Part shown: positions 9,961-11,440 of the stretch, piece after piece
Position numbering within the stretch: position 1 is the first letter of the stretch
How the letters are laid out: each line of letters starts with the position of its first letter
IMG/VR virus record: IMGVR_UViG_3300025296_000125
Span: 1 to 24,413 of that record
Source: a virus
Lineage: Duplodnaviria; Caudoviricetes
Reading direction: 5' to 3' (one strand)
DNA: 24,413 nt
Program-made: the position numbers and the translations under genes
The notes under the pieces: generated by a model
What the model was told of the DNA's origin: nothing
What the model saw: only the letters and a program-made list of their open reading frames with translations
The model's database searches: none

Positions 9961-9992
9961 ATTTTTAACCTACTTAATAGGAGTTTAAGCAA

Positions 9993-11380
9993 ATGGCTTT
10001 AACTAATACCTCAACCGCTGCCGGTGGACTCGGAAGAACCATTGGCGATGCGGTTATTGCGTTCAATCATACTAATGTGATGTACCCGCTTGTAACTGTT
10101 AAACAGGCTGCAAGGGGATCGAATCATGTTCAGTTCTCTGATTGGACGAAACTCACTTCAAGCAATGTAACTGCCGCGACACAGGCAACTGCTACAACCG
10201 CAGTCGCTATTACTACCGCAGCAAGGACGGCAACCATTTCGGAACACGTTATCGAATCACAAGTAAGTGATCTGGTTTTGATGGGTTCTGGAGATGACGT
10301 AGAAAATCAAGCCGGTCCGGCTCTTGGTAACGCAGTAGCAGCAAAACTTGATGATGATCTTGTGGAACTTGGTATGGAAATGCCGTCTGCGTAAGTGATT
10401 ATGCAGATTATTATTGGAATATTAAGCGGGAAACCTAAATGCAAAAGCACAAGGCAATCCGAACCGAAGGCTATTCAAAGAATAGTCAGGGGCAGAGCAT
10501 AGGCGATGAAAAGATATAATTCGCCCAAGAGATTCCAACAACTCATAAGAGTTGAAAAGATATGCCGATACTTGTTAGAAATGACAAGATGTAAGATAAA
10601 AAACTTACTACAACAAATGAAAGGTTTCTCACAAACTGAATGTGGTGCGGGAACGTCCCTGGCACTCTCTCATATCTTTGGTGCAATGCGTCAAAAGGCG
10701 CAATTGTTAAGAAATTAATGATTAAAAATCGGATGAATTGCTGGAAATCTAAATTGTTTAAAACAACACGACAATCAGCAGCCAAGCCACAAACGCTTTT
10801 GTGGAAGGTTCAGAGACTAATGGGTTTAACAAGCGTGTTATGTAATACCATATTAGCGTCCGACACCGTAGCATTTAATGCCGGTGATGATATAGTCCGT
10901 TCCATTGGGAAACCTATGGGTAAAACGCAAATGAGAGCAGCCGGTGCGCCAATGCCGTATTCGTTAGTTTTATCCCCAAAACAAGTTTGGGGTGGAAAAG
11001 GAATCATATCCTTGCTTCATAATGTTGCAGTAGATACAACTGGAACTTCAACATCTAACACCGGTAAAGCCGCACCAGTTGGCTTAATGGGTTCTAAAGG
11101 TGAAGAAGCCTTCCAGACGGGATTCGTTGGAAATCTCGCAGGATTTTCAATTTACTGGAGTGATCAAATTGATGAGAATGTCAGTTCTGGCGGGGATGCA
11201 GCCGGGTTCTCAATGTCTAAAGGCGCAGTTGGTCTTGGCGTGGGTGCTGATGGTCTATTTAGGATCGCAACCCAACGTGAAGAATCAGAACGTATGACAA
11301 AGTACGTTGCTACCGGATTTTGGGGCGAAATTGAAGTAAAAGATACCTACGGTGTCTATATCTTGAGTGATGTTTCTTAA
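9993..11380 (+). CDS. Major capsid protein, spliced: join(9993..10373,10620..10691,10928..11380), 301 aa
   Basis: AGGAG RBS. The exons join in frame: ...LGNAVAAKLDDDLVELG|KGFSQTECGAGTSLALSHIFGAMR|QMRAAGAPMPYSLVLSPKQVW...GFVGNLAGFSIYWS... This matches the usual HK97-fold capsid pattern, size and gene position. Confidence 0.88.
10374..10619 (+). ncRNA. Group I self-splicing intron 1 (246 nt, ORF-less) in the capsid gene
   Basis: P1 GGUAU-GGAA-AUGCC with U10373.G; P2 10386-10407 (GUGA loop); P3 UUGGAAU(10414-20)/AUUCCAA(10532-38); P6 arm 10469-87; P7 G-A-GCAUA(10495-10501)/UAUGCC(10561-66); P7.1 GGCGA/UCGCC; P8 CAACUC/GAGUUG; P9 with GAAA loop; terminal G10619. Removal restores the reading frame. 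Confidence 0.87.
10692..10927 (+). ncRNA. Group I self-splicing intron 2 (236 nt, ORF-less) in the capsid gene
   Basis: P1 UGCGUC-AAAA-GGCGCA with U10691.G; canonical elements P AAUUGCUGGAAA, Q AAUCAGCAGCC, R UUCAGAGACUA and S GAUGAUAUAGUCC; P3 UCGGAUG(10729-35)/CGUCCGA(10857-63); P9.0 GU(10899-900)/AC(10925-26); terminal G10927. Confidence 0.93.
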
Positions 11381-11399
11381 TCTTAACTGATTAAATGGT

Positions 11400-11426
11400 G
11401 ATGGGCGGGGTTTATCCCCGCCTGTT
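11400..11426 (+). terminator. GC-rich hairpin after the capsid gene (weak terminator or mRNA-stabilising stem)
   Basis: GATGGGCGGGG-TTTAT-CCCCGCCTGTT, with no long U-tract. Confidence 0.5.
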
Positions 11427-11440
11427 CCAAAGGAGAAAAA

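Follow-up and report, generated by a model that had tools for sequence, protein, structure and literature searches.

When the reading frame of a phage capsid gene is broken into three pieces, the question arises whether the gene is dead or whether the two gaps are removed, and, if they are removed, how they came to lie there. The gene considered here belongs to the window, the whole stretch of 24,413 nts of DNA that was analysed. This 24 kb fragment of a tailed phage carries terminase, head, neck and tape-measure genes, and its close relatives, as well as the RNA runs holding parts of it, are marine according to their records.

The capsid gene and its splice junctions

The locus is read as follows:

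9979-9983, plus strand: Shine-Dalgarno-like AGGAG ahead of the capsid start codon, read from the sequence, with a putative function
9993-10373, plus strand: capsid exon 1, 127 codons with a terminal U, placed by homology (PHROG 544, E 0.009)
10374-10619, plus strand: intron 1, 246 nts, phase 0, ORF-less group I intron of a clade missed by Rfam
10374-10394, plus strand: in-frame read-through of intron 1, six codons (MEMPSA) and a stop inside P2, with a putative role as a degradation tag
10620-10691, plus strand: capsid exon 2, 72 nts (24 codons) with a terminal U, placed by homology
10692-10927, plus strand: intron 2, 236 nts, phase 0, ORF-less group I intron related to cyanophage psbA introns
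10928-11380, plus strand: capsid exon 3, 150 codons and a stop, placed by homology
11395-11430, plus strand: strong hairpin 3′ of the capsid stop (-22.8 kcal/mol), read from the sequence, a possible terminator or processing signal

The hairpin was absent from the output of the terminator scan, and both promoter and terminator scans of the window remained at chance level.

Profile matches and position in the head module identify the host gene as a major capsid gene, in agreement with the original prediction. The match of exon 1 to the PHROG 544 major head protein is weak, a homologue (L045) matches PF25209 (E 9e-5), and tblastn of the intronless homologue L004 retrieves Pelagibacter phage capsid proteins (E 1e-10, 95% of the query). 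In addition, neighbours in the ESM Atlas carry a capsid name at 0.98, and the gene lies after the terminase as the sole capsid-like gene seen in the head module. As to the HK97 fold of such proteins, a profile search of the PDB gave nothing significant (best E 0.018), and an AlphaFold model built from a 20-row alignment of intronless homologues was of low confidence (pLDDT 32) and was not used.

Excision of 10374-10619 and 10692-10927 yields 301 codons and one stop, so that the coordinates, lengths and junctions first proposed proved exact. The joined protein aligns without gaps over residues 1-301 with intronless homologues (91% for L004, 81-88% for many others), as the proposed colinearity with intronless capsids had implied. 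Sliding of the junctions against 19 gap-free intronless alleles gave peaks at offsets 0 to +1 for intron 1 and 0 to +4 for intron 2, and offset 0 alone leaves a terminal U on both 5′ exons together with a terminal G on both introns. It is worth noting that both introns are in phase 0 and that exon 2 measures 72 nts: skipping of exon 2 would preserve the frame and shorten the protein by 24 residues.

With exon 3 as query, 80 related loci were fetched, of which 73 have no insert of any kind. Inserts occur in the remaining seven and are spread over four different sites: three loci from other assemblies (L001-L003) are identical to the window, L005 carries only intron 2, the insert of L027 lies at codon 148, and those of L044 and L046 lie at codon 165. 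Intron 1 is found alone in the alleles L087 and L091. Codon 148, which lies in exon 2 of the window, is an empty site there and is filled by introns of the intron 1 clade in other alleles. One intronless homologue contains a one-base frameshift (L033:2821-2824), possibly a sequencing error.

Parts of the window were also sought in RNA. Five RNA runs (X1-X5), all in the form of contigs, contain small shares of the window sequence. X1, X2, X3 and X4 gave short pieces with no junction, and one X5 contig joins both junctions. Because this contig shows many differences and has a base other than U at both exon ends, it is attributed to an intronless relative, and among the contigs of the five runs there was no spliced junction from an intron-bearing allele. 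Self-splicing of both introns is predicted from their folds and junctions.

Group I folds and the clade of intron 1

The structural elements are given below:

10382-10385, plus strand: intron 1 guide
10386-10394/10399-10407, plus strand: intron 1 P2
10415-10420/10532-10537, plus strand: intron 1 P3
10422-10430/10458-10463, plus strand: intron 1 P4, with a 3-nt bulge as modelled
10469-10474/10482-10487, plus strand: intron 1 P6a
10495-10501/10561-10566, plus strand: intron 1 P7
10502-10506/10521-10525, plus strand: intron 1 P7.1
10538 to 10554, plus strand: intron 1 P8
10571-10577/10582-10588, plus strand: intron 1 P9
10619, plus strand: intron 1 terminal G
10697-10701, plus strand: intron 2 guide
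10729-10733/10859-10863, plus strand: intron 2 P3
10738-10744/10775-10781, plus strand: intron 2 P4
10813-10819/10893-10898, plus strand: intron 2 P7, with a hairpin between P7 and P3
10864-10868/10881-10886, plus strand: intron 2 P8
10902-10919, plus strand: intron 2 P9
10927, plus strand: intron 2 terminal G

The original prediction held that both gaps fold as group I ribozymes and named covariance models as a check. Intron 2 is recognised by RF00028 (98.5 bits, E 1e-24). Intron 1 is not (16.4 bits, E 0.059, under the 50-bit cut-off), nor were the intron-1-type copies of L027, L044 and L046 listed by the RF00028 search at E 0.5, yet covariation supports the fold. The miss is likely due to the three-base bulge in P4 and to a P7 that departs from the Rfam consensus. 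Because the Rfam match is weak, intron 1 was assessed with a clade profile built from eight seeds and with covariation over 48 aligned copies. The structure modelled comprises P2, P3, P4, P5, P6, P6a, P7, P7.1, P8, P9 and one extra 3′ helix, and it is 97.4% paired over the 48 relatives, as against 30-39% in slid controls, with 38 of its 59 pairs changed on both sides. All six pairs of P3 are compensated, as are P8 and P9; P7 is 100% paired, with one pair compensated in 16 of the 48 rows. P4 and P6 are nearly invariant and hence fall outside the covariation test. The P3-P7 pseudoknot core, with a bulged base and a G-C pair as guanosine site, is recognised in both introns, along with P4-P6, P8 and P9. 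In P1 of both introns, a guide G pairs with the U that ends the exon. Homology, Rfam for intron 2 and covariation for intron 1 hence agree with the proposal of two ORF-less group I introns around a 72-nt exon.

An extra helix, P7.1, between P7 and P3 defines subgroup IA (IA2, typical of phages). In intron 1, P7.1 is present and compensated, and intron 2 has a hairpin at the equivalent place. Neither intron (246 and 236 nts) carries an endonuclease ORF in a peripheral loop, and a 70-aa ORF overlapping intron 1 has no Pfam match. IStrons are group I introns fused to IS200/IS605 elements, with TnpA/TnpB inside and one fixed target motif. This reading was dropped, since there is no ORF or transposase here and the target varies with the guide.

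The two introns of the window are unrelated and belong to separate clades. The nearest relatives of intron 2 share 70-80% identity in the core, and 32 of the 56 distinct loci with its core motif, among the matches listed, are psbA genes; the other hosts are capsid, polymerase, reductase and rIIA genes. Among cultured-phage matches, the psbA intron of S-PM2 is 71% identical to it over 94 nts. Many cyanophage-type psbA loci (within L092-L171) contain two closely spaced group I introns, at no fewer than three sites. Among cultured phages intron 1 has no close relative, just three partial matches, and no further intron of its clade was found within the window.

The clade of intron 1 was searched with intron-internal patterns only and then with the eight-seed profile. 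Among the matches listed, there are at least 154 distinct intron-1-type copies, at least 69 of them close (138 bits or more). Four of these 69 were left out, namely the second copy of L381 (an apparent chimera), L273 (unclear ends), L409 (at a contig end) and L405 (no clear 3′ site), leaving at least 65 curated members, all of 220-264 nts; for about a dozen, protein homology guided the manual placement of ends and phases. The shortest member (L216:1345-1564, 220 nts) apparently lacks P2 and has a stop directly after the splice site. Among the matches listed, 61 of the 65 curated copies lie in major capsid genes, at no fewer than 25 capsid sites. The capsid groups concerned are the PHROG 544-like group of the window, 267, 1328 and 9953, with some assignments (C-terminal exons of the window's family, L298 and short N-terminal flanks) resting on visible homology with no PHROG match. 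Of the non-capsid copies, two interrupt a gene resembling a terminase small subunit, and two a gene with no assignment. Of the 84 distant copies, 47 flanks were tested, again among the matches listed: 6 of the 47 are capsid and 7 of the 47 have endonuclease ORFs, and the other hosts are mostly ribonucleotide reductase, helicase, terminase and topoisomerase genes. The capsid bias may come partly from descent within related marine phages.

Single capsid genes can hold two or three copies of the clade (L083, L090, L285). Among the matches listed, phase 0 is seen in 40 and phase 2 in 25 of the 65 curated copies, with no phase-1 insertion among them. The guides follow the sites: when a motif defines the guide and the reading frame alone decides the splice site, guide and exon pair at positions -2 and -3 in 37 of 44 copies, compared with a mean of 19.7 and a maximum of 27 for 2000 permuted guides. 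Of the 69 close copies, 23 were lost to this test through ambiguous frames, and three of those listed had no 3′ motif match. Several of the seven misses come from the longest-ORF rule choosing the wrong frame. Three different guides occur among copies at one N-terminal site.

Signs of movement and possible routes of spread

Near-identical introns are found in divergent alleles. In L091, intron 1 is identical at 246 of 246 positions, in a capsid gene whose exons are 62% identical to those of the window; of the 30 bases flanking the intron on either side, 26 and 21 match. Intron 2 of L005 is identical at 234 of 236 positions, with exons at 79-84%. In L027 a copy with 95.5% identity to intron 1 is located 21 codons further downstream; the tree places the two as sisters with good support. 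In L087 and L091, the scaffold-like and downstream genes are 93-95% identical to those of the window, as opposed to 62% for the capsid gene, indicating that the capsid gene itself was swapped between lineages.

In AU tests, for which the site groups were named after the tree had been viewed, a single clade was rejected for the introns of the window's capsid family (p 4e-6) and for those of site 148 (p 0.033), and was not rejected for the two introns of site 127 (p 0.3). The trees are weakened by the mosaic appearance of the introns; L375:1384-1641, for instance, has the ends of the window's intron 1 and the middle of a 258-nt type. Separately, the third intron of L090, the first intron of L375 and L381 are flanked by exons from distant parts of the capsid, the joins lying between codons 219 and 293 and between 148 and about 171. 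Such joins reflect either deletion between near-identical intron copies or assembly collapse, and they imply more copies per gene.

Taken together, these comparisons suggest that the two unrelated introns, predicted to self-splice, were probably gained recently and separately as endonuclease-free mobile passengers. In the proposed splicing, free guanosine bound in P7 would cut at the U paired with the guide G in P1, and the terminal G would mark the 3′ splice site; full-length capsid protein would then need both introns out. The intron 1 clade would cross sites and capsid families with merely 3-4 bases of target pairing: most simply, excised intron RNA would reverse splice into the highly abundant capsid mRNA, and enzymes from the host or another element would then carry out reverse transcription and recombination. 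Near-identical copies, distant alleles, many sites and the lack of a mobility gene point to a route that needs few matching bases, and the abundance of capsid mRNA could explain the capsid bias under an RNA route. Neither a homing endonuclease nor a reverse transcriptase was found in the tested ORFs of the window, or in the flanks of 40 loci (mostly of 1.5-3 kb), whose ORFs formed 54 clusters with 29 representatives searched against Pfam. Reverse splicing is described as requiring four to six complementary bases, and transposition by this route as lacking direct experimental support (PMC3984707). The balance is about even for reverse splicing as the way in which the intron 1 clade spread.

A free-standing endonuclease encoded elsewhere could instead cut intronless alleles, the ORF-less intron being copied in by recombination and reaching new sites through relaxed cutting or recombination between intron copies. 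ORF-less phage introns are known to move by such collaborative homing (PMC3984707), the psbA intron of S-PM2 is a relative of intron 2, distant relatives of intron 1 carry endonuclease ORFs, and the mosaic introns and two-site joins (L090, L375) show exchange at the DNA level or collapse. However, no nuclease adjoins the capsid gene in the 40 loci, within the flanks of mostly 1.5-3 kb; an identical intron in a 62% allele, with flanks matching at 26 of 30 and 21 of 30 bases, leaves scant homology for recombination; and one endonuclease per site would be needed for the 25 or more capsid sites of the clade. Homing in trans is hence given the lesser weight, as a serious candidate that is somewhat unlikely to be the answer. 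That the gene is a pseudogene or an assembly artefact with unspliced inserts would fit the score of intron 1 far below the Rfam cut-off, the lack of a spliced read among the five RNA runs and the possible assembly collapses in some related contigs. It is exceedingly improbable given the identical structure in three other assemblies, the occurrence of each intron alone elsewhere, exons intact and free of stops, full covariation, and the gene's place as the only capsid-like gene of the head module; that both introns are genuine is almost certain.

The original prediction also proposed that two splicing steps could time or limit head assembly. The comparison of alleles does not support this: 73 of the 80 loci are insert-free, the introns occur separately, and their gain appears recent. 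Splicing is coupled to translation for T4 introns (PMC3073962), and the loop length and stop frame of the clade are tuned to the host gene, as would suit introns retained because they regulate capsid synthesis by delaying or limiting it. However, a conserved control would keep one site, whereas here the sites vary by allele, and near-identical copies are spread across divergent alleles. Near-identical copies and mostly insert-free alleles indicate recent passengers rather than a timing device, and retention for regulation is very unlikely.

Read-through tails and known systems

Translation of unspliced RNA would run into the introns. In intron 1 the read-through peptide ends in Ala before its stop; that of intron 2 ends in Asn (stop at 10716-10718), and in three capsid introns of the intron 2 type it ends in Lys. 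Across the intron 1 clade, loop length modulo 3 tracks the phase (35 of 40 phase-0 and 17 of 21 phase-2 copies), so that the stop in P2 falls in frame. That group I introns have an in-frame stop shortly after their 5′ end is an established rule (PMC3073962; PMC3984707). Ala precedes the stop in 41 of 45 copies at internal sites and in none of 20 at N-terminal sites (roughly the first 60 codons), a split that was made after the data were seen. In three capsid groups the Ala-stop is found in 41 of 41 internal copies, and the four exceptions belong to the PHROG 1328 and terminase-like genes. The Ala codon keeps its first base (G) in 37 of 37 internal capsid copies, in 12 of which that base is mispaired; at N-terminal sites the same codon base is variable and always paired (18 of 18).

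This pattern suggests that the peptide is under selection at sites where unspliced RNA would yield a long fragment, and the Ala-stop at internal capsid sites is possibly a weak degradation tag. It is about equally probable that only the early in-frame stop is selected, and that the Ala merely follows from the P2 stem and from shared ancestry: that stop already follows a rule, the C of the codon pairs in 37 of 37 copies, and a phylogenetically independent test of tail against site was not significant, being underpowered with two well-supported pairs. This is countered by the constancy of the G in the 12 copies where it is unable to pair, by wobble at the third position, by the Ala still present at the end of three copies whose P2 is shifted and of one whose P2 differs, and by the preceding Ser, which is kept in both codon families. 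The tails of the clade end in Ser-Ala, Phe-Ala or Leu-Ala (the usual forms), in Cys-Ala or in Ile-Ala, and none in Ala-Ala, the key element of the ssrA-type ClpXP degron (PMC7652416). An ssrA-type degron, judged by a C-terminal Ala-Ala, was hence rejected.

Group I introns in the major capsid gene have already been published from crAss-like phages (Yutin et al. 2021, PMC7886860), so that the original prediction had taken capsid introns to be rarer than they are. The resemblance extends to several introns per gene in one of the examples described there. Unlike those introns, found via endonuclease domains in large gut phages (PMC7886860), the introns of the window are ORF-less and of 236-246 nts, and they lie in a marine phage with a 301-aa capsid protein. 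Orf142 of Staphylococcus phage Twort holds three introns (PMC10136302, PMC3073962) and shares with the window several group I introns, a short exon between them and possible skipping, which here would keep the frame. According to the same accounts, two of the Twort introns are near-copies, whereas the pair of the window comes from unrelated clades and its host is the major capsid gene. The ORF-less psbA introns of the S-PM2 type (PMC3984707) are related in sequence to intron 2 but lie in a different gene, and the window has a capsid gene as host with no adjacent endonuclease found. In the Jug jumbo phages of the gut, introns of about 206 nts split essential genes and metatranscriptomes show splicing (PMC12880540), a likeness in short introns fragmenting essential phage genes. 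Their hosts, unlike those of the clade, are terL, nrdD and polymerase genes with many stand-alone endonucleases, and the part of that report consulted describes no capsid bias (PMC12880540). Fungal rDNA group I introns have spread to new sites, with reverse splicing proposed (PMC1299323), and there too related introns occupy different sites of one highly abundant RNA. Here the target is a phage mRNA, and different-site copies reach 95.5% identity.

A term search of the Bastillevirinae intron survey (PMC11878797) did not return the word capsid, and PMC11835236 and PMC10580990, as far as consulted, added nothing on capsids. In this literature, mostly open-access main texts, neither an ORF-less capsid-biased clade nor intron-encoded degradation tails were found. 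What is new, on the sequences compared, is a group I clade that is missed by Rfam, ORF-less and capsid-biased, with signs of recent movement. A bolder reading, which we consider unlikely, is that of an endonuclease-free clade specialised on phage capsid mRNA, jumping by reverse splicing, retargeted by single guide bases and carrying Ala tags that destroy poisonous partial subunits. If true, RNA-based transposition of a group I intron would have a natural and still active example here. The clade offers copies 95-100% identical at different sites and in divergent alleles, together with natural guide variants, so that the way in which endonuclease-free introns arrive at new sites becomes testable with one 246-nt ribozyme. 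The in-frame Ala-stop would further suggest how introns are tolerated in a gene whose product is required in hundreds of copies. A practical consequence is that the clade escapes Rfam and that gene callers fragment the capsid gene, a common marker in phage taxonomy.

Elsewhere in the window, two same-strand ORFs (174-869 and 244-882) overlap almost fully in different frames and match DNA methyltransferases (PHROG 363 and 1008). They resemble two-subunit cytosine methyltransferases with overlapping frames.
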